From assembly GCA_963804245.1 (NCBI GenBank), contig CAWDPQ010000009.1:657234-721233 (forward strand): a stretch of DNA of 64,000 nucleotides. Direction: 5' to 3'. Positions 46,526 through 63,280 of this stretch are shown here, one piece after another. The notes under the pieces are model-generated. The model searched no databases and was not told where the DNA came from. It worked only from the letters and a program-made list of their open reading frames with translations. This DNA comes from an uncultured Acidobacteriota bacterium (GTDB lineage: Bacteria > Acidobacteriota > Vicinamibacteria > Vicinamibacterales > 2-12-FULL-66-21). Each line of letters begins with the position of its first letter. Position 1 is the first letter of the stretch. A program made the position numbers and the translations under genes.

Positions 46526-46601
46526 CAGCCGTAGCGCGGGGGTTTACCCCCGCGTAACCGACGCGCCGCTAAAGCAGCGCGCTACGGGCGTGGGGTTGAC
46601 G

Positions 46602-48020
<1,419 letters not shown>

Positions 48021-48025
48021 CAGGA

Positions 48026-48051
48026 CCTGGCCTTCAGGGCGGGCGTGTGCG
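48026..48051. repeat. REP-like hairpin element (partial)
   Basis: CCTGGCCTTCAGGGCGGGCGTGTGCG, 6 nt after the boxB stop. Confidence 0.75.
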
Positions 48052-48064
48052 AATCACGGCATTC

Positions 48065-48862: not shown

Positions 48863-48884
48863 ACGTTAAACGTACGATGCCTTC

Positions 48885-48967
48885 GGCACGCACGACGACA
48901 CGACGGCACGAAGACACGAGAAATCCAAATAGCCGGGTCGTCGTGGCTTCGTGTCGTCGTGTTTACC
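48885..48967. repeat. 7-8 bp array hairpin (CACGACG-type arms)
   Basis: GGCACGCACGACGACACGACGGCACGAAGACACGAG / loop / GGGTCGTCGTGGCTTCGTGTCGTCGTG. It starts ~23 nt after the stop at 48862. Confidence 0.8.
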
Positions 48968-48983
48968 CGTCAGGACGTATACG

Positions 48984-50444
48984 ATGTCTGGTGTGGCCGT
49001 CGAGGAAAAGAAACTCCTCATCAACAACGAATGGCGGTCGTCCGCCTCGGGCGGGGCGATGGCGGTGATCAACCCCGCGACCGAGGAAGTAATCGCGCAG
49101 GTCGCGGCCGCGAATACGGCGGACGTCGACACGGCGGTCGAAGCGGCGCGCGCCGCCCTCGACGGTCCCTGGGGAAAAATGTCGGCGCGCGAGCGCGGTC
49201 GCCTGATCCGGGCGCTCGGCGATCGGCTGCTGGCACGGGCAGATGACGTCGCGCGTCTGGAGACGCTGCACAACGGCAAGCCAATCTCCGAATCGCGCAA
49301 CATCGAGATCCCGGCTGCCGCCGAGTGCTTCGAGTATTACGCCGGGTGGGCAGACAAGGTGATGGGCGAGACCATCCCCGTCAAGGGCAACTATCTGACC
49401 TACACGCTCCGCGAGCCGGTGGGCGTTGTCGCCGCGATCGTGCCCTGGAATTTTCCGTTGCTGCTCGCGGCGTGGAAGGTGGCGCCGGCGCTGGCCTGCG
49501 GCAACACCGTCATCCTGAAGCCGGCCAGCCAGACACCGCTGACGGCGCTGGCTCTCGGGGAAATTGCTGTCGAAGTCGGGCTACCGGCAGGTGTGTTGAA
49601 CGTCATCACCGGGCCGGGCTCGAGGGTCGGGCAGGCGCTCGTCGAGCATCCCGGCATCGACAAGATTGCGTTCACCGGCGATACGAGCACGGGCAAGGCC
49701 ATCATGCGATCGGCGGCCGACACGTTGAAGAAAATCACCCTCGAGTTGGGCGGTAAATCGCCGAACATCGTGCTCGCCGACGCCGATCTCGAAGCGGCGC
49801 TGCGCGGGGCGACGATTGGCATTTTCTACGGCAAGGGAGAAGTCTGCGCGGCAGGATCGCGCCTGCTCGTCGACCGCTCGATCAAGAGCGAGTTCATCGA
49901 CAAGCTGGCGGCACGCGCCAAGAAGATGACGGCGGGAGACCCCCTCGATCCGAAGACGCGCTTCGGTGCGATCTCATCGAAGAAGCAGATGGAGACGGTG
50001 CTCAAGTACATCGAATCGGGCAAAGCGGAAGGGGCGGCCCTGGTCGCCGGCGGTGCCCGCACCGACATCGGCACGGGCAAAGGGTATTTCGTGCAGCCGA
50101 CCGTGTTTGCCGACGTGACGTCCGAGATGACCATCGCGCGCGAAGAGATTTTCGGCCCGGTGCTCGCGGCCATCGAGTTTGCCGATTTGGACGAGGCAAT
50201 CGCGAAGGCCAACGACAGCCAGTACGGTCTCGCCGCCGGGGTGTGGACGAAGGACATCAAGAAGGCCCACTACGTGGCGCGCAAGCTCCAGGCGGGTACG
50301 GTGTGGGTGAATACCTACAACGTCTATGACACGGCGGCGCCGTTCGGCGGTTACAAGCAGAGCGGCTTCGGCCGCGAGATGAGCGCCCACGCCATCGAGC
50401 ACTACACGCAGGTCAAGAGCGTGTGGGTCGACTTGAACTTCTGA
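48984..50444 (+). CDS. NAD(P)-dependent aldehyde dehydrogenase (candidate for the semialdehyde step of the box pathway)
   Basis: ATG 48984 (MSGVAVEEKKLLINNEW). VPWNFP, FTGDTSTG, LELGGKSP, a catalytic Cys (GEVCAAGSR) and EEIFGPV. The pathway role is inferred from context only. Confidence 0.9.
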   Translation: MSGVAVEEKKLLINNEWRSSASGGAMAVINPATEEVIAQVAAANTADVDTAVEAARAALDGPWGKMSARERGRLIRALGDRLLARADDVARLETLHNGKPISESRNIEIPAAAECFEYYAGWADKVMGETIPVKGNYLTYTLREPVGVVAAIVPWNFPLLLAAWKVAPALACGNTVILKPASQTPLTALALGEIAVEVGLPAGVLNVITGPGSRVGQALVEHPGIDKIAFTGDTSTGKAIMRSAADTLKKITLELGGKSPNIVLADADLEAALRGATIGIFYGKGEVCAAGSRLLVDRSIKSEFIDKLAARAKKMTAGDPLDPKTRFGAISSKKQMETVLKYIESGKAEGAALVAGGARTDIGTGKGYFVQPTVFADVTSEMTIAREEIFGPVLAAIEFADLDEAIAKANDSQYGLAAGVWTKDIKKAHYVARKLQAGTVWVNTYNVYDTAAPFGGYKQSGFGREMSAHAIEHYTQVKSVWVDLNF

Positions 50445-50447
50445 AAA

Positions 50448-50550
50448 CGTCGATGTGCTACGTGCTACGTGCTACGTGCGACGTGCCACGTGCCCTCGCT
50501 GCACGTTGCACGTCCTGCACGAGTAACGTAGCACGTAGCACGTAACACGT
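50448..50550. repeat. heptamer-array hairpin (CGTGCTA arms)
   Basis: CGTGCTA x3, CGTGCGA, CGTGCCA, CGTGCCC / centre / ..GTAACGTAGCACGTAGCACGTAACACGTG. It fills the whole intergenic space between two genes. Confidence 0.85.
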
Positions 50551-50551
50551 G

Positions 50552-51703
50552 ATGTCCGATCCTCTCCTCAAATGGCGTGCCGAATTCCCCATCGTGGACA
50601 CCTGCACCTACCTGGTGAGCCATTCCCTGGGGGCCATGCCGAAGCGGACGGCCGCCTACCTTCAGCAGTTCGCCGATACGTGGAGCGCACGCGGTGTGCG
50701 GGCGTGGCACGAGGGTTGGTGGGAGCTCGGGCGGGAGACGGGCAACCTCCTGGCGCCGATCCTGGGCGTGCCCAAGGACAGCGTCTCGATGCACCAGAAC
50801 GTGACGGTTGCTCAGGCCATCGTCGCGTCGTGCTTCCGCTACGATGGCTCGCGCCGGAAGATCGTGATGACCGATCTCGAGTTCCCGACGAACATGTATT
50901 TGTTCGAGGGATTCCGCCGCTACGGCGCGGAGATTGTGTATGTTCCCTCGGATGACAGCGTTCGTACCAACCTCGACCGGCTGCTGGACGCCATCGACGA
51001 ACACACCCTTCTCGTGCCGCTGTCAGTGGTTCTCTTCCGCAGCGCCTACATCCAGGACGCAAGAGCGGTGATAGAAAAAGCACAGCGGGTCGGGGCGTGC
51101 GTGATTCTCGATGCATACCAGGCGGCAGGCACCGTGCCGCTCGACATCGCGGCGCTCGGGGCAGAGTTCGCGGTCGGCGGGTCGGTGAAATGGCTGTGCG
51201 GCGGTCCGGGCGCCGCCTATTTGTACGTGCGGCCTGACCTCGCGCCGACATTGCAGCCGACGCTGGCCGGGTGGGCCGCGCACATCGAGCCGTTTGCGTT
51301 CGAGACCGGAGCGCTTCGCTACGCCGATGCGCCGGAGCGGTTTCAGAGCGGCACTCCGAATATTCCCGCGCTCTACTCCGCGCGGGCGGGATACGAGATC
51401 GTCGCCGAGATTGGCGTCGCCGCCATTCGCGAGAAATCTCTGCGCCTGACCCGACGTCTCATGGACCGGGCTCGAACGTCGGGTTTCCGGCTCAACACGC
51501 CGGACGCCGACCGCGAACGCGGCGGAACGGTCATCGTCGACGTGCCGAACGCCGAAGCCGTGTCGCACGAGCTGCTGCGGCAGGAGATCGTCATCGACTA
51601 CCGACCCGGTGCCGGCATCCGGATGGCGCCGCACTTCTACAATACGGAAGAGGAAATCGATCGGGCGATGAGTGCGCTCGACACGATAGTGGCGAGCGGG
51701 TAG
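50552..51703 (+). CDS. kynureninase-like class-V-fold PLP-dependent enzyme
   Basis: Overall pattern resembles KynU: LVSHSLGAMP, WHEGWW, EFPTNMY and GGSVKWLCGGPGAAYLYV (PLP Lys). An alternative GTG start lies at 50549. Confidence 0.72.
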   Translation: MSDPLLKWRAEFPIVDTCTYLVSHSLGAMPKRTAAYLQQFADTWSARGVRAWHEGWWELGRETGNLLAPILGVPKDSVSMHQNVTVAQAIVASCFRYDGSRRKIVMTDLEFPTNMYLFEGFRRYGAEIVYVPSDDSVRTNLDRLLDAIDEHTLLVPLSVVLFRSAYIQDARAVIEKAQRVGACVILDAYQAAGTVPLDIAALGAEFAVGGSVKWLCGGPGAAYLYVRPDLAPTLQPTLAGWAAHIEPFAFETGALRYADAPERFQSGTPNIPALYSARAGYEIVAEIGVAAIREKSLRLTRRLMDRARTSGFRLNTPDADRERGGTVIVDVPNAEAVSHELLRQEIVIDYRPGAGIRMAPHFYNTEEEIDRAMSALDTIVASG

Positions 51704-51865
51704 AAACTGGGGAACTGCGGGGACTGGGGAACTGGGAGAACGCCTTGGGGGTGCTCGCCTCCGCTGGTCGCGGACAGGCAGGCGACCAGCTACGGCGAGG
51801 TCTCGCCGTAGCGCGCATGGATTATCGGCGCGCGGAGGCGGAGGGCCCCAAGCGCAGTGAGTAAA
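51703..51865 (+). repeat. AACTGGGG octamer array + structured repeat family R2, copy b
   Basis: The array AAACTGGGGAACTGCGGGGACTGGGGAACTGGGAGAA begins at the stop codon. The core at 51747-51865 matches 14842..14966. Confidence 0.85.
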
Positions 51866-51895
51866 GATAACTGGGCAAGCAGGAAGCGGAAAGCC

Positions 51896-52666
51896 ATGAC
51901 GAACATCCGCGTCGACATCACCGAGTCGATTGCCACACTGACCATCGACCGCCCCGCGGTGAAGAATGCGCTCGATCGGGAGACCGTCGGCGAATGCCAT
52001 CGGGCGCTGGACACGCTCGAGCAGAGTCCGGACGTCGGCGTCCTCGTCATCACCGGCGCCGGCGAATCCTCGTTCGTCTCGGGTGCGGACATCAACGATT
52101 TGCGTGGCCGCACCGGGGCCGATGGTCTGGCTGCGATCAGCTCGTCGCTGTTCGCCCGTGTCGAGCGGTTTCACCGGCCGACGATTGCCGCGATCAACGG
52201 CTACGCGCTCGGCGGTGGCTGCGAGCTGGCGCTCGCCTGCGACATCCGCGTGGCCGCCGATTCGGCGAAGTTCGGTCAGCCCGAGCTCGGTCTCGGCATC
52301 ATCCCCGCCGCCGGTGCCACCCAACGATTGCCGCGCGTCGTCGGCCAGGGCTGGGCCAGGCACCTCATTCTCACCGGTGAGATCATCGACGCGAAGCAGG
52401 CGTTGGAGATTGGCCTGGTGACCGCGATCATGCCGGCATCGCAGCTTCAGGTCCGCGCGCGCGAGCTGGCGAAGCGCATTCTGAAGCAGGGGCCGCTTGC
52501 GGCCAGATTGGCCAAGATCGCGCTGAACGCGTCCGCTCGCGTCGACCTCGATTCGGGCTTGCTCATCGAAACACTGGCCCAGGCCATCTGTTACGAGTCG
52601 GAGGACAAACAGGAAGGGACGTCCGCGTTCCTCGAAAAGAGGAAGCCGAAATTTTCCGGACGCTGA
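51896..52666 (+). CDS. enoyl-CoA hydratase
   Basis: ATG 51896 (MTNIRVDITESIATLTIDRPAVKNAL) after GGAAGCGGAAAG. FVSGADI, GYALGGGCELALACDIR and C-terminal FLEKRKPKFSG. Confidence 0.9.
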   Translation: MTNIRVDITESIATLTIDRPAVKNALDRETVGECHRALDTLEQSPDVGVLVITGAGESSFVSGADINDLRGRTGADGLAAISSSLFARVERFHRPTIAAINGYALGGGCELALACDIRVAADSAKFGQPELGLGIIPAAGATQRLPRVVGQGWARHLILTGEIIDAKQALEIGLVTAIMPASQLQVRARELAKRILKQGPLAARLAKIALNASARVDLDSGLLIETLAQAICYESEDKQEGTSAFLEKRKPKFSGR

Positions 52667-52730: not shown

Positions 52731-53108
52731 CTACCGAACGATGATCCGACCCTGCAGGTTCTGGTTGTCCGGACTGTCGTGATCGTGAAACCCGCACGTC
52801 CGCACGGCGACGAGATTCCCCGTTTCGCGGGTCTGGCCGGTCGTCAGGGCTCCCACCTGGTTGATTTCCGGACAATCACTGTGGTCCGGATGTGGATCGG
52901 AGGTGACGTCGTGCCGGCGGCCGTCGCTGTTGGTGAACAACACGCGCGCGCCTTGGCCCACCGTCAGCTCCTTGGGGCTGACGACACCTGTCGATGAAAT
53001 CGTGATGCGCGGCGCCGGCGGCGGAGGATCCGGACCCGGACCCGAGGGCGGCGCCGACCCACCGCACGAGCCGAGGGCGAAGCACAAGATCACGATACCC
53101 GGTCGCAT
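52731..53108 (-). CDS. cupredoxin-like lipoprotein with 5-His/2-Cys motif, paralogue 1
   Basis: Lipobox ALGSC followed by a Gly/Pro-rich linker. Core LFTNSDGRRHDVTSDPHPDHSDCPEIN..GQTR..CGFHDH..QGRIIV. 125 aa. Confidence 0.8.
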   Translation of the reverse strand: MRPGIVILCFALGSCGGSAPPSGPGPDPPPPAPRITISSTGVVSPKELTVGQGARVLFTNSDGRRHDVTSDPHPDHSDCPEINQVGALTTGQTRETGNLVAVRTCGFHDHDSPDNQNLQGRIIVR

Positions 53109-53158
53109 GCCGTTTCAAAGTGGCAGAAAATCGTGCCCCGCGCAACCGCCGGGTTGAC

Positions 53159-53590
53159 TTACTGAATGGTAATCCGTCCTTTGAGCGAGCCGTTCGTGTC
53201 GTCGTTGTGGTCGTGGTAGGTACACGTTCCGGCATTGCCGAATCCGTTGCTGTCGCGGGTCTGGCCGGCTGCGATGCTGCCGCGGTTGAGGGACGGGCAG
53301 GCGGTGTGCGCGGGATGCGGATCCGACGACATGTCGTGGGCTCGAGAATCGTTGTTCACGAAGAGGATGCTCTGGCCCACCGAAACGGTGACCTGCGACG
53401 GATTGACGCCGCTGCCCGTGATCGTGATGGTCGCCCCGATCGCTCCGACCGATCCGGTCGAACTGACCGTCGGTCCCGACGGTGCGTTTGGCCCACCGGA
53501 ACCGTCATCACCGCCGCCGCACGCCATGACGGTCGCGAGCGCTGCCGCGATTGCCATCTGCCCCATCCACATCTGCCATCGTTTGTTCAC
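53159..53590 (-). CDS. cupredoxin-like lipoprotein with 5-His/2-Cys motif, paralogue 2
   Basis: Start set at GTG 53590 (VNKRWQMWMGQMAIAAALATVMAC, lipobox VMAC; ATG alternatives at 53572 and 53566). Core LFVNNDSRAHDMSSDPHPAHTACPSLN..GQTR..CTYHDH..KGRITI. Confidence 0.78.
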   Translation of the reverse strand: MNKRWQMWMGQMAIAAALATVMACGGGDDGSGGPNAPSGPTVSSTGSVGAIGATITITGSGVNPSQVTVSVGQSILFVNNDSRAHDMSSDPHPAHTACPSLNRGSIAAGQTRDSNGFGNAGTCTYHDHNDDTNGSLKGRITIQ

Positions 53591-53606
53591 GACTACCCCC
53601 GAAGGA

Positions 53607-54467
53607 TTAGAAGAACTTGCGTGAAATGTTGAAACCAATGAACAGGTCGTCATTGGTGACGCCGCCCACGGCCAGTTGACTCATCGTGGTCCCGAACCCG
53701 TTTCCGAAATTGAGCTGGAAGCTGTGACCTCCGGCCCGTCGCTCGATGCCGAAGCTGTATTGGTCGACACCCGGCTCGTAGCCGAAGCGCGGAACGATCT
53801 CTCCCACCAGATAGAGGGACGGGCGGACTCGCAGTCGTCCGCCCAACCCGAGGAGAAACGTGTAGTCTTCATCGAGACTGCTGGCGACCGAATTGGTGTC
53901 GTGTATCCAGATAGGATGCGCGTAGAACGCCCCGTGCCGTCCCAGCGTGCGTGAGACGACCGCGCCGATTCCGGGCATGTAGCGGTCGCGAAAGTTGTTG
54001 GTGCCCTCTATGGTGGCGATGACGTCGACCCCTAGAGGAAAGTTCTGGCCTTGATGCAGAACCTGCTGCTGGCCGAACAGCTGGATCGTTCGATCGCTGG
54101 TGCGGTGAATCCCGATCTGCGTGCCGGCCATGATGCCGAAGCGATATTCGAGCCCGATTTGCGCGCCGGAGTCGAACCCGAAGAAATCGGAGACGAGATC
54201 CTTGAAGGAGCCTTCACCAAGCCTGCGCGTAAAGCGGTGCGTGACCCTGAACGAGCTGCCGAAGCGTGGAATCCTCAGCGTCGTCGGCAGCGTCACGATC
54301 GTGAAGTCCGGCTGCGCCGGGTTCACCGCGCGATCGCTCGGCACTTGAGGCGGCGGCGCCGGGTCCTGTCCCGCGGCCAGCGGGGCGGACGACAACCACG
54401 CGACTAATAGAAACGGACAGATCGCCCGCGGAGAAATCGTCGTTCGGCGCAACCCAAACTCCTTCAT
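53607..54467 (-). CDS. outer-membrane beta-barrel protein (family not firmly recognised)
   Basis: Signal peptide, alternating beta-strand pattern, GGHSFQLNFGNGFG motif and C-terminal ..FIGFNISRKFF (aromatic terminus typical of OMPs). 286 aa. Confidence 0.75.
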   Translation of the reverse strand: MKEFGLRRTTISPRAICPFLLVAWLSSAPLAAGQDPAPPPQVPSDRAVNPAQPDFTIVTLPTTLRIPRFGSSFRVTHRFTRRLGEGSFKDLVSDFFGFDSGAQIGLEYRFGIMAGTQIGIHRTSDRTIQLFGQQQVLHQGQNFPLGVDVIATIEGTNNFRDRYMPGIGAVVSRTLGRHGAFYAHPIWIHDTNSVASSLDEDYTFLLGLGGRLRVRPSLYLVGEIVPRFGYEPGVDQYSFGIERRAGGHSFQLNFGNGFGTTMSQLAVGGVTNDDLFIGFNISRKFF

Positions 54468-54472
54468 CCGGC

Positions 54473-54928
54473 CTAGGGCTTGATGTAAACAGGTCCCGGC
54501 GGCCCTTCGGCGCCAGCGACACGAATAGTTCCACCAAGGCCCGAGCTATCCGGATTCATGTGATCGTGAAAGCCACACGCTTTCGCGGTGTCGAACGTGC
54601 CGGTCATCCGGCTCTCGCCGGGCTGCAGGACCCCGACGTTGTTGATGGCCGGGCAGTCGGTGTGCAACAGGTGCGGGTTCGACTGTGGCTGATGCGCACG
54701 CGAATCCTGGTTCGTGAAGCGGACCTGACCCTGGACATCCACGCGCAGCTCTTTCGGATCGACAGAGCCATCCGCGCGGATAGTAATCACCGGGATGGTG
54801 GGTGTTCCACCGCCTCCTGGCGACGGTGTTGTCGGCGTACCACCACCGCCACCCCCTCCTCCGCCGCAACTCACTGTTGTGGCGACGCCAACGAGCAGGC
54901 ACCATCGATACACGACGTTGACTTGCAC
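54473..54928 (-). CDS. cupredoxin-like lipoprotein with 5-His/2-Cys motif, paralogue 3
   Basis: Start set at GTG 54928, 5 nt after AGGGAGG (alternative ATG 54943). The ORF-track TTG at 54973 is part of the sigma-54 -12 element. Lipobox TVSC and a poly-Gly linker. Core RFTNQDSRAHQPQSNPHLLHTDCPAIN..GESR..CGFHDH..GGTIRV. Confidence 0.78.
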   Translation of the reverse strand: MQVNVVYRWCLLVGVATTVSCGGGGGGGGGTPTTPSPGGGGTPTIPVITIRADGSVDPKELRVDVQGQVRFTNQDSRAHQPQSNPHLLHTDCPAINNVGVLQPGESRMTGTFDTAKACGFHDHMNPDSSGLGGTIRVAGAEGPPGPVYIKP

Positions 54929-54969
54929 CTTGCCCTCCCTCATGTCGAGCGTGTTCGCGAGGGAGTAAG

Positions 54970-54983
54970 GCAAAGCCGGTGCC
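54970..54983 (-). promoter_or_regulatory. sigma-54 (-24/-12) promoter
   Basis: Minus strand reads GGCAC-CGGCT-TTGC, i.e. GG-N10-GC with consensus-like flanks (consensus TGGCAC-N5-TTGCW). It lies ~40 nt upstream of the lipoprotein start and ~95 nt downstream of the NtrC-type regulator gene. Confidence 0.6.
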
Positions 54984-55075
54984 GAGCGCTTGGGCGCTAA
55001 AGTCTTGGAACAGCGAGGCTTAGTCGTCGCAGTCGTTACTCGGGACGAAATCGGTTACCGCGCACGTAAGCCGGT

Positions 55076-56437
55076 TCACTCCACCCGGTGCTTGGCCAGG
55101 TAGTAGCTCAGCGCGCGCTGGCTGATCCCCATGGCTTCGGCGGCGTCCTTTTTGACGCCGCCGGCAGCCTCCAGCGCGCGGCGGACCGTCTCACGCTCGG
55201 TCCAATCGAGATTCTGTCGAAGGTTCTGAGACGGCAACCCCGAGGCAACCGGTGCGTTGACGCCGAACATGGTGACGACATCGGGTCCGATCGTCGGGCT
55301 TACTGAGAGCACCACCGCCCGTTCGAGCGTGTTCTCCAATTCGCGGACGTTTCCGGGCCACTCAGCGCGCTGAAGAGATTCCATGACCCCTGGTGCGATG
55401 CCGTCGACGCGCTTGCCGGCCCGTCTGGCGTGCTTCGCAATGAAATGTTCAACGAGCAACGGGATGTCATCTCGGCGTTCGCGCAACGGCGGAATGTGAA
55501 TCGGTATGACGTTCAGTCGGTAATAGAGGTCTTCCTGGAAGCGGCCGTCCGACACCATCTGTCGCAGATCGCGATTGCTGGCGGCGATCACCCTGACATC
55601 GACTTTGCGCGTGCGCTCCGACCCGAGCGGCTCGAACTCACGCTCCTGCACCACGCGCAACAGCTTGGCCTGCAGCGCCGGGCTCATGGTCGCGATCTCG
55701 TCGAGGAAAATCGTGCCGCCGTCGGCAAGTGCGAACTTGCCTTTCTTGTTGGCGGTTGCGCCCGTGAACGCACCGCGCAGATGACCGAACAGCTCTGATT
55801 CGAGCAGCGTTTCGGGAATCGCCGCGCAGTTGACTTTGATCAGCGGCATCTCACGCTGCGCGCTGTGATAGTGAATGGCCCGGGCCACCATTTCTTTGCC
55901 GGTCCCGGTCTCGCCGGTGATGAGGACGGTGCTCTTCGTGCCGGCAACGATTTCCGCCGTGCGGACGACCTCCTGCATGCGCCGGCTCCGACCCACCAAC
56001 CCATACTGGTTGAAGTCGGCGTCCCGCTCGCTGATCAGGTATCCGTGTTCGGTGCGGAGCCGCTGATGATCCAGGGCCCGTTTGACGACGACGAGGAGCT
56101 CGTCGATTTCGAACGGTTTCTGCAGATAGTCGAAGGCGCCAAGCTTCATCGCCTCGATCGCGCTTTCGACCGTCGCGTGGGCGGTCATCATGACGACCTG
56201 CGGGCGATCGGTCGCCGGAGTGGCGGCGAGCTCGCGGATGAGATCGAGCCCGGTGAGGTCGGGCATCAGGTTGTCGACAACCAGCACGTCGAAGAAGCGC
56301 TGACCGAGCAAGCGTCGCGCCTCGTGAGGATCGGCGGTCGTGACCACCTCGTGGCCGTCGCCGCGCAGTGCGGATCCCAGCGCGTTGAGAATCTTGGTCT
56401 CGTCGTCGACGAGCAGGATTGCGCCGGCCGCCATCAT
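55076..56437 (-). CDS. sigma-54-dependent response regulator (NtrC family)
   Basis: REC domain (LLVDDE..D..MPDLTG), AAA+ domain with GETGTGKE, GAFTGA and ESELFGH, and a C-terminal Fis-type HTH. It overlaps the kinase gene by 4 nt. Confidence 0.95.
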   Translation of the reverse strand: MMAAGAILLVDDETKILNALGSALRGDGHEVVTTADPHEARRLLGQRFFDVLVVDNLMPDLTGLDLIRELAATPATDRPQVVMMTAHATVESAIEAMKLGAFDYLQKPFEIDELLVVVKRALDHQRLRTEHGYLISERDADFNQYGLVGRSRRMQEVVRTAEIVAGTKSTVLITGETGTGKEMVARAIHYHSAQREMPLIKVNCAAIPETLLESELFGHLRGAFTGATANKKGKFALADGGTIFLDEIATMSPALQAKLLRVVQEREFEPLGSERTRKVDVRVIAASNRDLRQMVSDGRFQEDLYYRLNVIPIHIPPLRERRDDIPLLVEHFIAKHARRAGKRVDGIAPGVMESLQRAEWPGNVRELENTLERAVVLSVSPTIGPDVVTMFGVNAPVASGLPSQNLRQNLDWTERETVRRALEAAGGVKKDAAEAMGISQRALSYYLAKHRVE

Positions 56438-58221
56438 CTGCGGACTGCGGCCGGGGTCTGAGGTTGCTCGAACACCTGAGCAATCGGTAACTCGATACGA
56501 ACCTCGGTGCCCGACGCGGGCCGGCTCTGGATTGAGATGGTGCCTCCCATACCCTCGATGATATTCCGGGATATCGCCAGACCGAGCCCCGTCCCGGTTC
56601 GCCGTGTCGTGAAGAAGGGATCGAACACGCGCCCGAGGTCTTCGGGGACGATTCCGGCGCCGCGATCGCGGACTTCGATCGCAATCCTCCCGTTCTTGGA
56701 TCGGGTCGTCCGCAACACGATGGCGTCGGGCAGCGCCGCCGCGCCCGATTGCGCCGTCACCGCCATCTTCGCGTTCGTCAGCACGTTGACCAGCGTCAGC
56801 CGCAAACGTTCCGCGTCCATGGTCGTGTGCGGCAGCGCCGGATCGAGGACGAGCTGGACCGTGGGTCCGCCAGGACCGGGGCGCACGGCCCGGACGGCAT
56901 CCTCACAGACCGCGTTGACGTCGGCTGGCGCCATGTCGAACTTGATCGGCCGCGCGAAGTCCAAGACCTCCGACACGATTCGGTTCAAGCGCGCGGTTTC
57001 CTCATCGATATCGGTGACGGCGGCGCGCAGATCTTCGGGCGGGATCGAACCACGGCGCAGCGTCCGCAATGCCGCCTTGATGATCATCAGCGGATTCCGG
57101 ATCTCGTGGGCGACGACGGTCGACAGGCGCCCGAGCGACGAGAGGCGCTCGCGCTGCGCCGCCTCTTTTTGAAAACGGCCGATCGAGTCGGTCATCGTAT
57201 TGAAGGTCGTCGCCAGCAGGCGGGCATCCTCATCTTCCCAGCGACCGCCGGCTCGCACCGGGATCTTTCGCGTGAGGTCGCCTGTCGAGGCCATCTCACG
57301 CATCGTCGCGGTGATCGTGCCCAGCGGACGGGTGATGGTGCGCGCGATGGCGTAACTCAACAGGGTCGCGGCCAGTACGGCGACACCCGCGGTCACGAAC
57401 AGGCTCGTGTGCAGCGCCCGCAGAAAGCGCAAGCGCTCGGTACGTGAGCGCAGAACGATGGCCATCGCTGCGCCGCTGCGATCACGTGAGAGCGTGCGAG
57501 TCATCGCCACGTACTCATCGCCGCCGATCTGCACGGTTTCTGCGGGACCCTGTCGAGCGAGAAGGGGTGTGAGCGTCGGCCATGAATCCGGCGGCAAGGT
57601 GGAGGCCTGAATCGCGTTGTTGACGGCGAAGGCGATGTCGCTGTTCGTCAGCGATCGAAACCGCGCCGCTACGCGATCGTCGAGACTGAAGCCAATGCTC
57701 AGCGTGCCGAGGATCTCGGGTTGCTGCGGGTTGATCCAGATTGGCACCGTGACCACCTGGAGGACGCCACCAGGGTGCGGCCAGAACCAGTTCGCCTCGC
57801 GTCCGGAGCGCGCCTCGAGCACACCAGGCAGCCCTTCGTAGGCGCCAGCCGCGGCGCCGGGGCTGGCCAGCCTGGCGAGAAAACGGCCGGCGCGGTCGGT
57901 CACGAGAAACAGGTCGGCCGCCACTGCGTTCTGATATTCCTTGGCGACGCCGAGCGCGGTTGGCGAATCGCCTTCGGAGACGCTCGCTTTGAGACGGGGG
58001 AGATCGGCGATGAGCCGCGCTTCACGGCTGAAATGCTCGACCTGCACCCGCCGGTTCTCTTCGATCAGCGTGCCCGCCTCCTCCAGGCCGCGGAGCAGTT
58101 CCTGCTCGGCCTGGGCGGTGACCGAGACGTTCACGTTGTAGATGGCCGCTCCGATGGTGAGCACGGCCAGCAGCGCGCTGCCGAGGAAAATCCGGTTCGT
58201 CAGCGAGGCGAAGATGCTCAT
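56434..58221 (-). CDS. sensor histidine kinase with large periplasmic domain
   Basis: Two TM segments flank a ~260-aa extracytoplasmic region. H-box VAHEIRNPL, N box LVNVLTNA, G boxes DRGAGI and GTGLGLAI. 4-nt overlaps with both neighbours. Confidence 0.92.
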   Translation of the reverse strand: MSIFASLTNRIFLGSALLAVLTIGAAIYNVNVSVTAQAEQELLRGLEEAGTLIEENRRVQVEHFSREARLIADLPRLKASVSEGDSPTALGVAKEYQNAVAADLFLVTDRAGRFLARLASPGAAAGAYEGLPGVLEARSGREANWFWPHPGGVLQVVTVPIWINPQQPEILGTLSIGFSLDDRVAARFRSLTNSDIAFAVNNAIQASTLPPDSWPTLTPLLARQGPAETVQIGGDEYVAMTRTLSRDRSGAAMAIVLRSRTERLRFLRALHTSLFVTAGVAVLAATLLSYAIARTITRPLGTITATMREMASTGDLTRKIPVRAGGRWEDEDARLLATTFNTMTDSIGRFQKEAAQRERLSSLGRLSTVVAHEIRNPLMIIKAALRTLRRGSIPPEDLRAAVTDIDEETARLNRIVSEVLDFARPIKFDMAPADVNAVCEDAVRAVRPGPGGPTVQLVLDPALPHTTMDAERLRLTLVNVLTNAKMAVTAQSGAAALPDAIVLRTTRSKNGRIAIEVRDRGAGIVPEDLGRVFDPFFTTRRTGTGLGLAISRNIIEGMGGTISIQSRPASGTEVRIELPIAQVFEQPQTPAAVRR

Positions 58222-58883
58222 CGGCGGCTGATCGAGAAGTTCAGCTCCACGTCGCCGCCCGACTCCGGGACCGTCACGCGGCGCGATTCGAGCGGCAGCG
58301 CTTCGTTCCAGACGAACACGCTGTAGGTTCCCGGCGGTACGTTGTCGAGACGGAAGCTGCCATCCGGTTCCGTCACGGCAAAATATCTGTGCGCGAAGAC
58401 CAGGATGAATGCGCTCATATGCGAATGGATCTCGCAGAACACACGGATGATCCCCGGCCGTTCGAATCGCACCGATTTCGATTTGCCGACCGCGTACCGA
58501 CCGAGGTCGAACGACTTCGCTCGCGACAGCGAAAACACGTTGTGATAGGTCAGATCGCTGTTCGGAAAATCCACGGTCGTGCCCGCAACGATGGCGAGTA
58601 CGTGCGGCATGAACGTTTCGTTGCGTTGATCGATGCGTGCTCGGGGCTCGTCACGTTCATCGAACGCGCCGCGTGGTGCCGGATCCAGGTAGACAACGCT
58701 GCGGCGATCGACGGGACCAATCGGCGTCGGCATGCCGAGGTCGGCAGGATTCGGCCGGCGATCGCGGTCGGCAGTTCCTTGACGCACATCGACGCGGCCG
58801 CGCAACGTTCCGGTGACCGGCGGCGTGGCGCCGAGGTAGAAGAGGACGAGAGCTGCGAGTAAGGAGGACGTCGCGGGCAGCAT
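58218..58883 (-). CDS. membrane-anchored cupredoxin (type-1-copper-like ligands) with C-terminal CarboxypepD_reg-like domain
   Basis: FPNSDLTYHNVFS ... PGIIRVFCEIHSHMSAFILV gives a His...Cys-x2-His-x2-Met pattern. The C-terminus FRLDNVPPGTYSVFVWN is typical of carboxypeptidase-regulatory-like beta-sandwiches. Confidence 0.82.
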   Translation of the reverse strand: MLPATSSLLAALVLFYLGATPPVTGTLRGRVDVRQGTADRDRRPNPADLGMPTPIGPVDRRSVVYLDPAPRGAFDERDEPRARIDQRNETFMPHVLAIVAGTTVDFPNSDLTYHNVFSLSRAKSFDLGRYAVGKSKSVRFERPGIIRVFCEIHSHMSAFILVFAHRYFAVTEPDGSFRLDNVPPGTYSVFVWNEALPLESRRVTVPESGGDVELNFSISRR

Positions 58884-60128
58884 CTAGAACCAGTAAGCCA
58901 GCTGACCGGACACGTATGTGCGCGAGCGAACCCGTCCGCCGTCCCGCCAGTTGCGCTGAACGACCGCACGCCCGACGAGATTGCGCAGCAGGTACCATCC
59001 CAAGCCGGTTTCCACTCGATCCACTGGTGCGTCCCAGGTTATGGGGACCCCGCCGAAGACCGTCCCGGCGATGCGCGAGAAGGTGAGCCGATCGCCGCGT
59101 GCCGCCACGAAGAACCGCGGGCTCAGTCGATATCGTCCCTCGATCCACATTCCGCAGGCATCGAGGCGGTGCGTTTCGCCGACCGCCATGAACGGCATCT
59201 GCCAGCCACTCCAGACCACCTCGCCGCGAACGAGCCAATGCGCGCGGGAATATTCGGCATCAACGCCCAACGCTCGCTGAGAATACGACCGCGATTGCGC
59301 CGTCGTCGGCAGCAGGGCAGTGACGTCGTCGGAGAGCCACTCTCCCCGAGCGGCCGAGGCACCGATGAGGAGGCCGATCATTGGCTTCGCCGCGACTCGC
59401 CCGGAGATCTGCCGGCCGCCGTTGTTGTCGGCGAACCGCGGATCCGACAGGGTACCGGCGGTTACCGCCGCCGTGGCTTCGACGTAGGCTCCGCTCCACC
59501 GTCCCTGCACGCCGGTATCCCAGCGGAATGCGCTGACGAGTGGAAGTCCCGTCGCCACTGACGTCGACCCGACGGGGAAGCTCGGCTGCCACCCGCGTCC
59601 GCGCATGCGCAGGAGGTCGTCAACCGTGTTGGGAATGGCGTCGGCACGAAGCGACGTCAGATACTGATAGGCGAGCGGGTACCCGATCAGCGGATTGTCG
59701 GCGTTGTAAGCGCGACGGCCGTAAGCGCCGAATGACGGCGGGATGCGTCCCGCCTGAATGTCGAACGCGTGGGATTGCCAGGGCCGGAACCGCACGTAGG
59801 CGGCGTGGGTATCGACCCGGCTCAAATCTTCCGACCGTATCTCCGCAATCAGGGCGACCCGGGCCATTGGGCGCCACTGACCGGCGATCGCCAGCCGCAT
59901 CAGGCGCAGGGCGTTGTGCTCGTAGTCGGTGTAATTGAAGAAGGCCGTGTCATCGGTCGGTCCGAGCGTGCCGACGATTTCCCCGCCGATGAGCAGTGTT
60001 CCGTCCGATGAGCGCAGGGGTGGCCACCCGATGCCCGGCGCATCCAGATTGGGGGCCACGGTCTGGGCCGTTGCCGCGCCCGCCGAAACAGTCAGCACGA
60101 GCGAAAGCGCCGCAGCAGCCATGCGCAT
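58884..60128 (-). CDS. porin-like outer-membrane protein
   Basis: Start moved to ATG 60128 (MRMAAAALSLVLTVSAGAATAQ signal peptide). It ends ..YVSGQLAYWF. The upstream 200 codons of the ORF-track entry run antisense through 60156..60503. Confidence 0.75.
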   Translation of the reverse strand: MRMAAAALSLVLTVSAGAATAQTVAPNLDAPGIGWPPLRSSDGTLLIGGEIVGTLGPTDDTAFFNYTDYEHNALRLMRLAIAGQWRPMARVALIAEIRSEDLSRVDTHAAYVRFRPWQSHAFDIQAGRIPPSFGAYGRRAYNADNPLIGYPLAYQYLTSLRADAIPNTVDDLLRMRGRGWQPSFPVGSTSVATGLPLVSAFRWDTGVQGRWSGAYVEATAAVTAGTLSDPRFADNNGGRQISGRVAAKPMIGLLIGASAARGEWLSDDVTALLPTTAQSRSYSQRALGVDAEYSRAHWLVRGEVVWSGWQMPFMAVGETHRLDACGMWIEGRYRLSPRFFVAARGDRLTFSRIAGTVFGGVPITWDAPVDRVETGLGWYLLRNLVGRAVVQRNWRDGGRVRSRTYVSGQLAYWF

Positions 60129-60155: not shown

Positions 60156-60503
60156 ATGAGTGCCGAGGCCCGGCCGATTTTCTCGCTGCAGCAGGCGCGC
60201 GACCTTCTCCCCCATATCAAGCACATGACGGCGGATGCGGTCCGTCGAGCTGAGTCGCTTGCTGCGCAGCTGCATGGCCTGCAGGAGGAAGATCCGGATC
60301 ACGCAAACCTCTCGGCGGCGCTCCGCGATGTTGTGAACGGCTGGGCGGCAGAAGTCCAGGCCCTCGGCCTCGAGGCCAAGGGCCTTTGGCTCGTCGACTT
60401 CGATAACGGCGAAGGCTACTACTGCTGGTGCTACCCGGAAGAAACCGTCGCCCACTACCACGGCTACGAAGAGGGCTTCAAAGGCCGCCTCCGAATCCAG
60501 TAG
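60156..60503 (+). CDS. DUF2203-like small protein
   Basis: ..GLWLVDFDNGEGYYCWCYPEETVAHYH.. resembles the conserved core of DUF2203 proteins. This is from memory. 115 aa. Confidence 0.7.
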   Translation: MSAEARPIFSLQQARDLLPHIKHMTADAVRRAESLAAQLHGLQEEDPDHANLSAALRDVVNGWAAEVQALGLEAKGLWLVDFDNGEGYYCWCYPEETVAHYHGYEEGFKGRLRIQ

Positions 60504-60507
60504 CGCA

Positions 60508-60579
60508 TTTTTCAGCGCTCGTCCAGACCCACGCCCCGCTCGCTCTCGCTCGAGCCCCGAGCCCCCGAGCCCCCGAGCC
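60508..60579. repeat. truncated R1-type core joined to GAGCCCC array
   Basis: TTTTTCAGCGCTCG..CCCCGCTCGCTCTCGCTCGAGCCCCGAGCCCCCGAGCCCCCGAGCC. It lacks the GGCGGCTTCGCGCC..GGCCGCAGGCGCT half. Confidence 0.7.
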
Positions 60580-60613
60580 AGGATCTTGCCAAGCCCCGTG
60601 GGCCCGTATATAA

Positions 60614-61441
60614 GTGGCTCGTGAGACGTGGAATATGATTCCACATTCCGGAATACCTGAAAAGGTCGAACGCGACCCGCAGACCTCGCTCGAGAAGGCG
60701 CTCGACGTCTGCGAAGCACTGGCTGGTGCACAGCGGGGATTGAGCGTCACCGATCTTGCGCGGGGGCTCAGGCAGCCGGCACCGACGGTTCATCGCCTCC
60801 TCGCGGTGCTGAAGCGGCGCGGATTCGTTCGTCAGGACGAAGAGACTGCCCGCTACAGCCTGACGCTGAAAATGCTCGACCTCAGCTTCCGGCTGCTCGG
60901 CCGATCCGAGCTGCGGCTGCATGCCTATCCGGTTCTGCGCGAGTACGTCCTGAGGACCGGATTGCGGGCGTTCGTCGCGGTTCCGGCGGCCGGCGAGGTC
61001 ACCTATTTGTGGAGTGCCGGGCCGGACGCTGTGGGCATGCACACCGCGTACGGACGGCAGATGCCCGTGCACTGCGCGGTGTATCTGGATGCTGCCGCCG
61101 ACCGGCGCTTGAGTTGTCTGCGCCTCGAGCAGGCTCGCGATGCCGAGCAGCCAGAACGCATCGCCGTCCGCTTCGGCAAGGATTCACGCGATCCGGCGCG
61201 CCCGCCGCTGCAGCGTCTGTTGTGCACCTGTGCACCCGTCAACGACTACACAGGACGGGAAGTCGCGCGCGTGGGCGTGTTCCAGCATGCGGCCGCCGAG
61301 CGGCCGTTCGTTGGCGAGCAGACTGTTGCGGCAGCGGAGCTCGCGCGGCTGATTTCCGTGCGCCTGGGCTTCCTCCCAGCGGCGACGGGTGGAGAGGACT
61401 TCATTCAGCGAAGGAGCGTCAGTGGCGTACATCATTACTGA
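60614..61441 (+). CDS. IclR family transcriptional regulator
   Basis: SLEKALDVCEALAGAQRGLSVTDLARGLRQPAPTVHRLLAVLKRRGFV (wHTH) plus a C-terminal effector domain. The start may be ATG 60635. Confidence 0.85.
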   Translation: MARETWNMIPHSGIPEKVERDPQTSLEKALDVCEALAGAQRGLSVTDLARGLRQPAPTVHRLLAVLKRRGFVRQDEETARYSLTLKMLDLSFRLLGRSELRLHAYPVLREYVLRTGLRAFVAVPAAGEVTYLWSAGPDAVGMHTAYGRQMPVHCAVYLDAAADRRLSCLRLEQARDAEQPERIAVRFGKDSRDPARPPLQRLLCTCAPVNDYTGREVARVGVFQHAAAERPFVGEQTVAAAELARLISVRLGFLPAATGGEDFIQRRSVSGVHHY

Positions 61442-61682
61442 GCCGTGCATCGGGACCAAAGACAGTGCATGCGTCGACGTCTGTCCGGTCGACTGTATTC
61501 ACCCGCGCAAAGACGAACCGGAGTTTGCGACGGTCGAGATGCTGTACATCCATCCCGACGAGTGCATCGACTGCGGCGCTTGCGTTCCCGCGTGTCCGGT
61601 AGAGGCCATCTTCGCGCTCGACGAAACACCGGAGAAGTGGAAGAACTTCATTCCCATGAACGCGGAGTATTACCAGAAGTAA
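61422..61682 (+). CDS. fdxA: 7Fe-type ferredoxin
   Basis: GTG start 5 nt after AAGGAG. (M)AYIITEPCIGTKDSACVDVCPVDCIH and YIHPDECIDCGACVPACPVEAI. Confidence 0.88.
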   Translation: MAYIITEPCIGTKDSACVDVCPVDCIHPRKDEPEFATVEMLYIHPDECIDCGACVPACPVEAIFALDETPEKWKNFIPMNAEYYQK

Positions 61683-61786: not shown

Positions 61787-63280
61787 ATGCGAAGCGCGTT
61801 CGCACCCTTCGCGATATGGCTGGTTTCGGCCGGACTGTTGATTGCTCAGGAGCCGCCGTTCACCCAGGCCGACGTCCAGGCGCAGCTGGGCGATCTCCTG
61901 CTGGGCGAGGGACGGTACGCTGAGGCCGCCGACGCGTATCGGCGGGCGCTGCCGTCGGATACGCTCGGCAGCCGCGCAGGTGTCGGGATGGTCGTCGCGG
62001 CGCTGCGAATGGGGGAGTTCGATTCCGCCTACAACACCGCGACGGCGCTGCGAGCGCGATTTCCAGAAGCGGCGGATGTCGCCGCAATCCACGGAGACGC
62101 GCTTTGGGCGTACGGACTGTTCGATGCCGCCGAAGCCGCCTATGGCGTGGCAGCTGCGGCCGACGACGGGGAGGCGCGCGCTCGCCACGGCCGCGCGCGC
62201 GGGCTGGCTGCACGCAACCGTCTCGACGAGGCCATTCTGGAAGCGCAGGAGGCACTGCGGCTGAACCCGCGGCAGGCTGATTTCCACTACACGGTCGCTG
62301 CCATTTACGCGCAGATGCACCGCTTCCAGGAGGCGGCGCTGGCCCTCCGCAACTACGTCAACCTCCTTCCCAACCGCGACGTCAGTGAAAAGGCGGCATG
62401 GTCACGTTCCGAGATTCGTTTCCTGGAATCGTTCGACGGCCGTCAACCATTCGATCTCGGCTCGAGCGGTGCCTCGCACGTCTGGCGCGTCCCGATTCGT
62501 ATCGACCGCGACAAGGTCCTGGTACGCGCGAAGGTGAATGGCGGCGGCAACCAGGACTTCATCCTCGATACCGGCGCCGAACGCATGGTGGTCTCGCGGG
62601 AGGTTGCACGGCGTCGCGGCGTCCATCCGATCACCCATATTCAGACCGCCGGCGTCGGTGAAGTGGGACTGCGCGGTCTCGAGATCGGACGGATCAATAC
62701 GCTGCAGATCGGCGACCTCATGATCCGGAACGTGCCGTGCCTGATCAAGAATCCGCCGCTCGGCGGGTTGCCGGGGCGCGAGCCGGAAAGCTTTTCACCG
62801 CTGGCGCTCGGCCTGTCGATGCGGATTGACTACGTCCGACGCGAGCTGATCATGACGCGGCAGCTGCCGTCCGAACGTTACGGCGCGGAACTGCCCCTGC
62901 GCATGCATCGTCTCGCCATGGTCGTCGGGCGGGTCAACGGCACGCACACGGCCACGTTCGTCGTCGATACTGGCGGGGAAGTCATTTCGATCAGCCAGAG
63001 CACCGCCGGTCTCATTCACCCGGCGCCCTCCGCCCGTCGCATTCCGCTGAAAGTCTACGGCACGTCGGGATGGGACAAGGGGGCGTTTCTCATGCCGAAC
63101 GTCGATCTCGAGTTCAGCTCGATCCGATTCAGCCGGATTCCAGTCGTCGTGTTGAACCTGAAGGCGCCGAGCACCTTGCTCGGCTTTCAGCTCGGCGGGA
63201 TCGTCGGCCACCGATTCCTCAGCAAGTATCGGGTGTCGATCGACCTCAATCGAAGCGTCGTGGGGTTGGATGCGAATTGA
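61787..63280 (+). CDS. secreted TPR protein with two retropepsin-like aspartic protease lobes
   Basis: Signal peptide and TPR-like helices. FILDTGAERMVVS (Asp codon at 62567) and FVVDTGGEVISIS (Asp codon at 62966). Confidence 0.82.
   Translation: MRSAFAPFAIWLVSAGLLIAQEPPFTQADVQAQLGDLLLGEGRYAEAADAYRRALPSDTLGSRAGVGMVVAALRMGEFDSAYNTATALRARFPEAADVAAIHGDALWAYGLFDAAEAAYGVAAAADDGEARARHGRARGLAARNRLDEAILEAQEALRLNPRQADFHYTVAAIYAQMHRFQEAALALRNYVNLLPNRDVSEKAAWSRSEIRFLESFDGRQPFDLGSSGASHVWRVPIRIDRDKVLVRAKVNGGGNQDFILDTGAERMVVSREVARRRGVHPITHIQTAGVGEVGLRGLEIGRINTLQIGDLMIRNVPCLIKNPPLGGLPGREPESFSPLALGLSMRIDYVRRELIMTRQLPSERYGAELPLRMHRLAMVVGRVNGTHTATFVVDTGGEVISISQSTAGLIHPAPSARRIPLKVYGTSGWDKGAFLMPNVDLEFSSIRFSRIPVVVLNLKAPSTLLGFQLGGIVGHRFLSKYRVSIDLNRSVVGLDAN

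Follow-up and report, generated by a model that had tools for sequence, protein, structure and literature searches.

The ZraPSR system of Escherichia coli and Salmonella, which is associated with envelope stress and zinc, is a sigma-54-dependent two-component system that induces a periplasmic metal-binding protein. Enhancer-dependent promoters are built on a GG-N10-GC layout with TGGCAC-N5-TTGC-like elements, with dyads located about 70-150 nucleotides (nt) further upstream. Here, we describe an eight-gene cluster in a 64-kb stretch of DNA (64% G+C; contig CAWDPQ010000009.1, positions 657,234 to 721,233, hereafter the window) from an uncultured soil acidobacterium of the order Vicinamibacterales. 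Sequence comparison of related loci shows a conserved regulon that consists of a sensor operon, predicted enhancer dyads, a predicted sigma-54 promoter and an output operon encoding one to three copies of a small lipoprotein (P) and usually an outer-membrane (OM) beta-barrel. We tentatively read it as a self-contained Vicinamibacterales regulon for a copper- or redox-linked extracytoplasmic function, an assignment to which we give slightly less than an even chance. In soil, Vicinamibacterales rank among the most abundant bacteria, yet they are largely uncultured, and to our knowledge their envelope biology is essentially unknown.

The cluster comprises eight consecutive open reading frames (ORFs) at 52731-60128 on the minus strand. 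A preliminary description, made by a model from the letters of the window, had listed these ORFs, and all of them are present at the coordinates given there. In the direction of transcription, the features are:

58884-60128, minus strand: porin-like outer-membrane protein (OMP), 414 amino acids (aa), first gene of the sensor operon; ORF, signal peptide, C-terminal YWF
58218-58883, minus strand: N-terminally anchored type-1 cupredoxin with a CarboxypepD_reg-like domain, 221 aa; weak Pfam and PDB matches, conserved ligands
56434-58221, minus strand: sensor histidine kinase, 595 aa; first transmembrane segment, periplasmic domain of ~240 aa, second transmembrane segment, HAMP, HisKA (H372), HATPase_c
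55076-56437, minus strand: NtrC-family sigma-54-dependent response regulator, 453 aa; Pfam domains, GAFTGA
55036-55069, minus strand: probable enhancer (upstream activator site) of two dyads; position and motif kept in related loci
54970-54983, minus strand: predicted sigma-54 promoter core GGCAC-N5-TTGC (-24/-12); exact motif match
54473-54943, minus strand: lipoprotein P3, His-rich and cupredoxin-like, alternative start GTG 54928; paralogue of P1 and P2
53607-54467, minus strand: DUF5777 outer-membrane beta-barrel, 286 aa; PF19089 match
53159-53572, minus strand: lipoprotein P2, with an ORF reaching to 53653 and a likely start at Met 28 or Met 30; ORF and paralogy
52731-53108, minus strand: lipoprotein P1, 125 aa, taken as reference for the P family; AlphaFold2 (AF2) model, Foldseek, signature of 187 sequences

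The genes are as tightly packed as first described: the OMP stop at 58884 abuts the cupredoxin start at 58883, two 4-nt overlaps join cupredoxin to kinase (58218-58221) and kinase to regulator (56434-56437), and small gaps separate P3 from the barrel (5 nt) and P2 from P1 (50 nt). The single real gap, of ~130 nt, extends from the regulator stop at 55076 to P3. It had originally been given as a 100-nt spacer containing a sigma-54 promoter; the promoter stands, whereas the spacer grows to about 130 nt after revision of the P3 start, as TTG 54973 sits within the promoter and ATG 54943 or GTG 54928 (the latter immediately preceded by a Shine-Dalgarno-like GGGAGGG run) is assigned instead. For P2, a start near 53566-53572, corresponding to Met 28 or Met 30 of its listed ORF, is more probable than one at 53653; its homologue on a near-identical contig (locus L081) is called at 135 aa.

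Within this gap, GGCAC-CGGCT-TTGC at 54970-54983 (minus strand) is the sole exact match to the promoter motif on both strands of the window. Alignment of the intergenic regions of related loci furthermore revealed a conserved pair of dyads with the consensus TTACG-N5-CGTAA, represented in the window by TTACGTGCGCGGTAA at 55055-55069 and TTTCGTCCCGAGTAA at 55036-55050, which begin 86 and 67 nt ahead of the promoter GG. This motif has a background of 0.13 matches per kb and no further match in the window, and a scan of the window disclosed neither a second sigma-54 site nor a dyad upstream of the OMP gene. Of 46 related loci compared, 34 have GGCAY-N5-YTGC 3' of the regulator gene, and all but one of these promoter-bearing loci (33) carry at least one dyad at the same distances, 19 of them both. 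At the level of sequence, the gap thus contains a sigma-54 promoter together with an upstream activator site. The supposed path from regulator via promoter to output genes is strengthened by this recurrence, and since the arrangement is the one typical of enhancer-dependent promoters, the link between regulator and P operon forms the best-supported part of the overall account, the promoter itself being a prediction. As a separate observation, short tandem repeats lie between regulator stop and dyads, close to the latter, in five related loci (L023, L068, L069, L071 and L075), for example in L068, where six copies of GCTTCCA precede inverted copies of the GGAAGCTGG type, and in L075, with four copies of GATCCGCGTCCCGTT.

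A scan with one genome per species yielded 244 P loci, of which the best 80 were used for comparison. Synteny was assessed by tblastn of the eight window proteins against related loci, with genes in the loci called by a simple GC3 heuristic; the compared genomes are mostly metagenome-assembled genomes (MAGs). Except for a few bins with seemingly wrong labels, the best 80 of the 244 loci all come from MAGs of Acidobacteriota/Vicinamibacterales, and they carry one copy of P in 55 cases, two in 24 and three in a single case. The common order in related loci is OMP, cupredoxin, kinase, regulator, a gap, and then barrel and P. Among the loci whose sequence extends 8 kb or more upstream of P, 55 in all, 34 carry the four sensor genes complete and on the strand of P (ten more are partial, several of these being long-read assemblies with frameshifts), and the barrel adjoins P in 47 of 74 eligible loci. 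The genes flanking the cluster vary between genomes, and since the flanks differ while the order persists, the conserved unit is the cluster itself. Conservation of the neighbourhood in other genomes had been set beforehand as a decisive check, and the arrangement indeed recurs in dozens of Vicinamibacterales genomes rather than reflecting chance.

On the sensory side, the designation of the first gene product as a porin-like OMP is backed by weak matches of its homologues (Porin_O_P, BBP2, OMP_b-brl, SlpA_C), a signal peptide and the C-terminal YWF, and by nothing more; the protein matches no Pfam or NCBIfam family, and its profile matches no PDB sequence. Its gene sits 5' of the cupredoxin gene in at least 34 related loci. 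For the 221-aa protein, Pfam reports Cupredoxin_1, Copper-bind and CarboxypepD_reg weakly, with scores under the gathering cut-offs, and PDB sequence searches retrieve plastocyanin and, at E 1.9e-4, the cupredoxin domain of a copper nitrite reductase, with whose ligands its own ligands align. The His...Cys-x2-His-x2-Met pattern noted at the outset corresponds to H114, C150 (the sole Cys), H153 and M156, is kept in all 120 homologues examined and falls within the type-1 set His...Cys-x(2-4)-His-x(2-4)-Met on a cupredoxin domain. By this ligand set, the product of 58218-58883 is a type-1 blue copper protein with predicted copper binding. The kinase has the large periplasmic domain ascribed to it, ~240 aa between two transmembrane segments, followed by HAMP, HisKA with H372 in the H-box, and HATPase_c; close homologues show weak dCache_3/sCache_3_2 flags in the periplasmic part. 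Likewise, the regulator is of the NtrC type as annotated, combining a receiver (Response_reg, E 2e-26), a sigma-54 AAA+ domain (Sigma54_activat, E 4e-73) with GAFTGA at residue 222, AAA_lid_14 and a C-terminal Fis-type helix-turn-helix (HTH_8, E 4e-6). Its scores against named members, that is AtoC (456 bits, curated cut-off 714), NtrC (414, cut-off 559) and ZraR (406, cut-off 760), do not extend to orthology with any of them.

The association of this cupredoxin with the sensor domain is found well beyond Vicinamibacterales. The family, including its FPNxDxxxHNVFS motif that is present across many phyla, was encountered in Acidobacteriota, Gemmatimonadota, Verrucomicrobiota, Bacteroidota, Myxococcota, Planctomycetota and Proteobacteria. 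In a sample of 120 loci of 8 kb taken from among the matches listed of a motif scan, and therefore not unbiased, 43 encode a homologue of the kinase periplasmic domain on the cupredoxin strand, often less than 200 nt away; a related OMP accompanies the cupredoxin in 19 and a sigma-54 regulator in 17. On plasmids of Betaproteobacteria, a cupredoxin homologue annotated as 'methylamine utilization protein' is encoded immediately 5' of an EAL-domain protein of 786 aa (L206 6881-9866 and L207 6809-9801), the N-terminal 290 residues of which, in Caballeronia, align with residues 6-300 of the window kinase (E 1e-17); upstream of the pair are DUF3034 and a truncated haemoglobin in Caballeronia and DUF4394 in Comamonas. 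As the cupredoxin accompanies the sensor domain whether the output is a kinase or an EAL protein, it behaves like an accessory sensing partner, and we propose it as a periplasmic co-sensor whose contact with the kinase is suggested by gene linkage alone. The genes 3' of homologous sensor sets differ in other phyla; because of this variation, P would be a Vicinamibacterales-specific output. For example, a Bacteroidetes MAG (L113 39-1868, minus strand) carries the set of cupredoxin, OMP, kinase and sigma-54 regulator, which is followed by a 609-aa secreted protein whose N-terminus resembles a CHRD domain by eye. Literature searches returned no account of a cupredoxin as sensor accessory protein or of such cupredoxin-sensor operons, none that connects cupredoxins with Vicinamibacterales, and nothing relevant on 'methylamine utilization protein' plus EAL.

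The output lipoproteins P1-P3 are paralogues with 36-48% pairwise identity. A match of these proteins and the barrel to a family of established function would have contradicted the preliminary description, and none was obtained: P belongs to no curated Pfam or NCBIfam family, and the barrel belongs to a domain of unknown function. P profiles give marginal plastocyanin matches only among PDB sequences, and large databases name the homologues of the window proteins 'plastocyanin', 'hypothetical' or 'DUF5777' and nothing else. More than 1,200 homologues of P1 in a metagenome protein collection all lack a Pfam domain, and against 1.8 billion representative proteins the P profile matched 3,219 clusters (50% identity) at E<=1e-3 and 691 at E<=1e-10; no published account of the family was found. 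Among 187 P sequences, the lipobox Cys (C15) is kept in 184 and is followed by a Gly/Pro/Ser/Thr-rich linker, as it is by a Gly/Pro/Thr linker in P3. The signature of these 187 sequences reads N60, R64, H66 (96%), S70-D-P-H73-P-x-H76-x-D-C79-P and Q92-x-R94, continuing C-terminally with C105-G-F-H108-D109-H110, L118 and G120. Within it, H73, H76, H108, D109 and H110 are kept in 99-100%, and the five His residues that P1 has in total all occupy conserved positions.

The AF2 model of P1 (pLDDT 88) adopts a cupredoxin fold, and its best Foldseek matches in the PDB are the Nitrosopumilus purple cupredoxin, plastocyanins, amicyanins, Cupredoxin_1 proteins and FtrB; the top 40, mostly plastocyanin and amicyanin besides the purple cupredoxin, Cupredoxin_1 proteins and a NirK, reach E-values down to 3e-7 and target-normalised TM-scores up to 0.78. 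P has the cupredoxin fold without the type-1 His-Cys-His-Met/Leu set of the C-terminal loop, so that the two cupredoxin-type folds initially noted in the cluster are indeed there, one in the 221-aa type-1 protein and one, minus the type-1 site, in P. The ligand Cys of type-1 cupredoxins normally sits at the end of strand 7. In the AF2 secondary structure of P1, C105 opens strand 7 and D109/H110 close it, and in a HMMER alignment with plastocyanin 2plt the Cys is matched by D109, the second His by P113, the Met by L118 and Tyr80 by C105. H66 is the only type-1 position retained, and even this is Arg in 7 of the 187 sequences, which are otherwise intact. A classic type-1 site in P was accordingly rejected on strand assignment, alignment and H66R variants. 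Since C79 is lost only together with C105 (jointly in one sequence), this loss, the strand assignment and the alignment argue for a probable C79-C105 disulfide that braces the scaffold and for a new His site, predicted from conservation and secondary structure to comprise His73/His76/His108/His110(+Asp109). Of the 'His/Cys motif' originally assigned to the lipoproteins, the Cys residues are probably structural and not copper ligands. A Cu,Zn superoxide dismutase (SOD) was also considered on account of G-F-H-x-H, a conserved Arg and the disulfide, and was rejected: the 50 Foldseek matches listed for P1 are all cupredoxin-fold proteins (single-domain cupredoxins, NirK, CueO) with no SOD among them, and a Pfam scan of the eight proteins gave no Sod_Cu match.

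In multi-domain proteins, the P domain forms the C-terminal tip of TIG, fn3, PKD, Big_2 or CarboxypepD_reg stalks, or occurs in tandem arrays, and its position at stalk tips fits a displayed, surface-facing functional domain. Fusions of barrel and P were sought among these proteins; those found have Ig-like stalks and no barrels. One 458-aa protein (L074 8933-10309, plus strand) joins a C-terminal P domain to an N-terminal domain of ~300 aa with a putative beta-propeller-like look from repeated YRLYF/LTF-type strands. P also occurs outside the two-component cluster, namely with DUF1800-DUF1501 pairs and small OMP_b-brl barrels (L060 6602-10366 and L003 1898-4372), with a DUF5777 barrel as partner (L009 9138-13196) or with DUF1800 only (L025 10085-11896). 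The contexts of such orphan P genes are heterogeneous (DUF1800/DUF1501, GFO/IDH oxidoreductases, PEBP, Ser/Thr kinase) and give no common functional hint, and no relevant literature was found on DUF1501 plus DUF1800. In another locus, a 415-aa secreted protein with no Pfam match is encoded directly 5' of P (L013 8688-9935, plus strand) and contains the His/Met-rich stretches SGHTHTMPMP, DYQHPHD and HHQMDATHISHG; it may be a further metal-related partner.

The barrel of the window matches PF19089 with 96.4 bits (cut-off 23.1, E 2e-27) over profile positions 6-247 of 247. Its AF2 model (pLDDT 80) has 12 predicted strands and a strongly conserved N-terminal extension, and the closest solved folds by Foldseek are 12-stranded channels (KdgM-family porins, FapF, COG4313). 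In related Vicinamibacterales, one or both of two extra genes lie between the regulator and barrel genes: a ~150-aa lipoprotein with CxxCH and weak PSCyt1 similarity (10 loci), and a Cupredoxin_1 protein that has the CuA-type motif, CSEYCGxGHxxM, in full (8 loci). P3 of the window thus fills the position that relatives assign to a haem-c lipoprotein and/or a CuA-type cupredoxin, and the presence of these proteins in the relatives' module suggests electron exchange rather than mere metal storage. Insertions of both, the cupredoxin with H...CSEYCGxGHxxM, were seen in L041 (7914-8875), L055 (8027-8887) and L072 (8061-9002).

A second setting of DUF5777 is provided by Bacteroidota, where 26 loci were taken from among the matches listed of a sequence-motif scan, which is not an unbiased sample; one of their barrels matches the Pfam DUF5777 model with E 2e-80. 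Two kinds of cytochrome gene adjoin the barrel gene on its strand: one encodes a ~130-aa haem-c lipoprotein with the unusual motif CX4CH or with CXXCH (at least 20 of 26 loci), the other a dihaem cytochrome c of ~340 aa (about 22 of 26). This three-gene module of lipoprotein, barrel and dihaem cytochrome c is exemplified by L210 (4608-7073, minus strand) and 25 further Bacteroidota loci (L211-L323), with an added YceI-like protein in the variants L249 and L282 and an apparently similar layout in L287. The small cytochromes of Bacteroidota and Vicinamibacterales are likely homologous, the part shared in pairwise BLAST being a short C-terminal motif only. The barrel residues R74, H77, R78, R122, R211, E242 and H248 are kept in both phyla, conservation at positions 246-253 being biased by the search motif. 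Given cytochrome neighbours in both phyla and CuA neighbours in Vicinamibacterales, DUF5777 seems to stand habitually beside extracytoplasmic redox proteins. Full-text searches found no published account of DUF5777, and no relevant literature was found on PSCyt1.

Taken together, these features may be arranged into the following scheme. A signal would enter the periplasm via the OMP, and the blue-copper protein would report copper loading or redox state to the periplasmic domain of the kinase. The phosphorylated activator would then bind the dyads and open the sigma-54 promoter. P, presumably held at the outer membrane by its lipid and the flexible Gly/Pro-rich linker, would bind a metal, most likely Cu, at His73/His76/His108/His110(+Asp109) on the Cys79-Cys105-braced cupredoxin scaffold. 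At the outer membrane, P and barrel together could then carry out redox reactions or handle metal.

The link to metal or redox chemistry in this scheme is one that we infer from fold, motifs and gene company. A copper/redox function is favoured over plain metal buffering or uptake, a metal-independent binding module and coincidence, because the recurring electron-transfer partners and the intact type-1 site in the sensor operon point towards it. Several observations weigh against it. Neither an experiment nor a curated family connects any output protein with copper or redox chemistry, a haem motif (CxxCH) is absent from all eight proteins of the cluster, and the Bacteroidota loci are biased by their selection via a sequence motif. 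P without type-1 ligands is no standard electron carrier, and its four-His site could equally bind Zn or Ni; a forced global hhalign alignment, moreover, pairs C105 with the type-1 Cys, at a probability of <3%. Furthermore, in one subclade P is located directly 3' of the regulator gene, without promoter and without barrel, and stop and start codons overlap in some of its members. P is thereby tied to the two-component system yet not always as a separate operon, the barrel appears dispensable, and P could belong to sensing instead of output. This last arrangement also suits non-redox metal handling with a ZraPSR-like logic, a somewhat unlikely but serious competitor, in which P would serve as metal buffer or chaperone (Cu, Zn, Ni), the barrel as ion channel and the cupredoxin as copper-occupancy sensor: among the outputs only P is constant, and in the subclade it would be cotranscribed with the sensor genes like an accessory protein, its invariant His4/Asp cluster contains no Cys or Met ligand, its flexible linker and stalk fusions are apt for capture at a distance, and the ZraS/ZraR models score next best after AtoS/AtoC (and NtrC for the regulator). 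However, these scores are far under the equivalog cut-offs, no ZraP/CpxP-like gene is present, no transporter, P-type ATPase, multicopper oxidase, CopB/C/D or CusF-type gene lies in or beside the cluster in any locus examined, and the partners that recur are electron-transfer proteins (cytochrome c, CuA).

P might alternatively be a surface-displayed beta-sandwich for ligand binding or adhesion that works independently of metal, with the two-component system sensing an unrelated envelope or nutrient signal. The preservation of five His/Asp positions at 99-100% while the remaining surface varies is as expected of a metal or catalytic site and renders this improbable, as do the intact type-1 copper site in the sensor operon and the redox proteins co-encoded in relatives, even though the type-1 site is lost in P, the domain caps TIG, fn3, PKD, Big_2 and CarboxypepD_reg stalks (and once follows a propeller-like domain), and P is also found beside DUF1800-DUF1501 pairs and small OMP_b-brl barrels. 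Finally, two unrelated operons might have come to lie head to tail by chance. Variable flanking genes and P genes that stand alone would agree with this, but the order is kept in dozens of species-level genomes, and promoter and dyads occupy the same register between both halves, so that the comparative data already contradict a coincidence, which we consider very improbable indeed. Beyond the favoured copper/redox function, a wider and rather unlikely proposal combines two parts, namely that the type-1 copper protein is a redox or copper co-sensor of the Cache-like domain and that DUF5777 represents a new class of small, 12-stranded OM redox modules. As to the former, the Cache-like domain with which the cupredoxin may act occurs on kinases (Acidobacteriota, Bacteroidota, Gemmatimonadota and others) and on EAL proteins (Betaproteobacteria). 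As to the latter, DUF5777 barrels carry the cross-phylum invariant His77/His248 and an Arg cluster, and their lipoprotein partner may be either a haem-c protein (Bacteroidota, some Vicinamibacterales) or the His-rich P (window), which could represent a haem-to-copper swap on the cell surface.

The locus is of interest for a new protein family of about 3,200 clusters (50% identity) with no Pfam or NCBIfam model and a predicted metal site, and for a complete circuit of sensor, enhancer dyads, sigma-54 promoter and output that is legible from sequence. It further brings to light two associations for which no published description was found, that of a blue-copper protein with a sensor domain across phyla and that of DUF5777 with extracytoplasmic cytochromes. 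If the copper/redox reading is true, the regulon may offer an entry point to copper sensing and handling or to surface electron exchange in dominant soil bacteria. As for its surroundings, the cluster adjoins a benzoyl-CoA oxidation (box) cluster at 44870-52666 on the plus strand, with BoxC at 44870-46525 (857 bits, cut-off 712) and BoxB at 46590-48020 (747 bits, cut-off 499; both equivalogs), after which come genes for enoyl-CoA hydratases, for an aldehyde dehydrogenase and for a class-V aminotransferase or kynureninase-like protein; box-region genes also flank P in several relatives. On the other side, the genes at 60156-61682 and 61787-63280 (both plus strand) diverge from the OMP gene, the facing start codons being only 27 nt apart. 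This flank contains genes for DUF2203, for an IclR-type regulator and for a small 4Fe-4S ferredoxin, then one for a protein with TPR and clan-AA aspartic protease domains, and is syntenic in the close relatives L081 and L085.

The preliminary description did not recognise the combination as any described copper, redox or uptake system, and the comparisons bear this out for ZraPSR, Cop/Pco/Cus and the porin-cytochrome conduits alike. With ZraPSR, the window shares a membrane kinase and an NtrC-type regulator, an adjacent gene for a (here predicted) metal-binding protein, a -24/-12 promoter and upstream activator sites. In contrast, kinase and regulator score 164 bits against ZraS (equivalog cut-off 479) and 406 against ZraR (cut-off 760) and thus fall outside these families, the sensor domain is Cache-like with ~240 aa, and no CpxP/LTXXQ-type (ZraP) match occurs among the eight window proteins, whose effectors are instead cupredoxin-fold lipoproteins and an OM barrel; OMP and blue-copper protein, in addition, lie in one operon with the sensor. 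The Cop/Pco and Cus systems likewise place extracytoplasmic copper-type proteins and an OM barrel under two-component control (compare PcoA/PcoC with PcoB). However, no multicopper oxidase, CopB (PF05275), CopC, CopD or CusF match was obtained for the eight proteins, nor were these families found among neighbours in the related contigs examined, which sets the cluster apart from them, and the regulator is sigma-54-dependent whereas theirs are of the OmpR type, with a sensor domain unrelated to that of CopS/CusS. The Cyc2, MtrAB and Pcc conduits also associate an OM beta-barrel gene with genes for lipoprotein or periplasmic redox proteins, a likeness that is limited to gene company; their barrels have 16-26 strands as compared to the 12 predicted here, which places the window barrel outside these groups, and the window has a copper-type fold as partner and no haem motif.

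At the level of individual proteins, the cupredoxin beta-sandwich of plastocyanin, amicyanin and azurin is shared by the 221-aa protein and P1-P3, and the C-x2-H-x2-M spacing of the former is that of amicyanin. P differs from type-1 cupredoxins in carrying Asp109 for the Cys, Pro113 for the second His and Leu118 for the Met as well as the invariant H-P-x-H...C and C-G-F-H-D-H signature, whereas the 221-aa protein differs in its fusion to CarboxypepD_reg and its pairing with signalling proteins in place of respiratory or photosynthetic ones. CpxP-CpxA, TorT-TorS, LuxP-LuxQ and HbpS-SenS are sensors assisted by an accessory protein, and the window would add to them a periplasmic accessory, encoded beside its kinase and proposed to bring the signal to it, that is a predicted type-1 copper protein, its interaction being suggested by gene linkage. 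The cluster is of a known kind, a two-component envelope regulon, and what is new here are its effector and accessory families.

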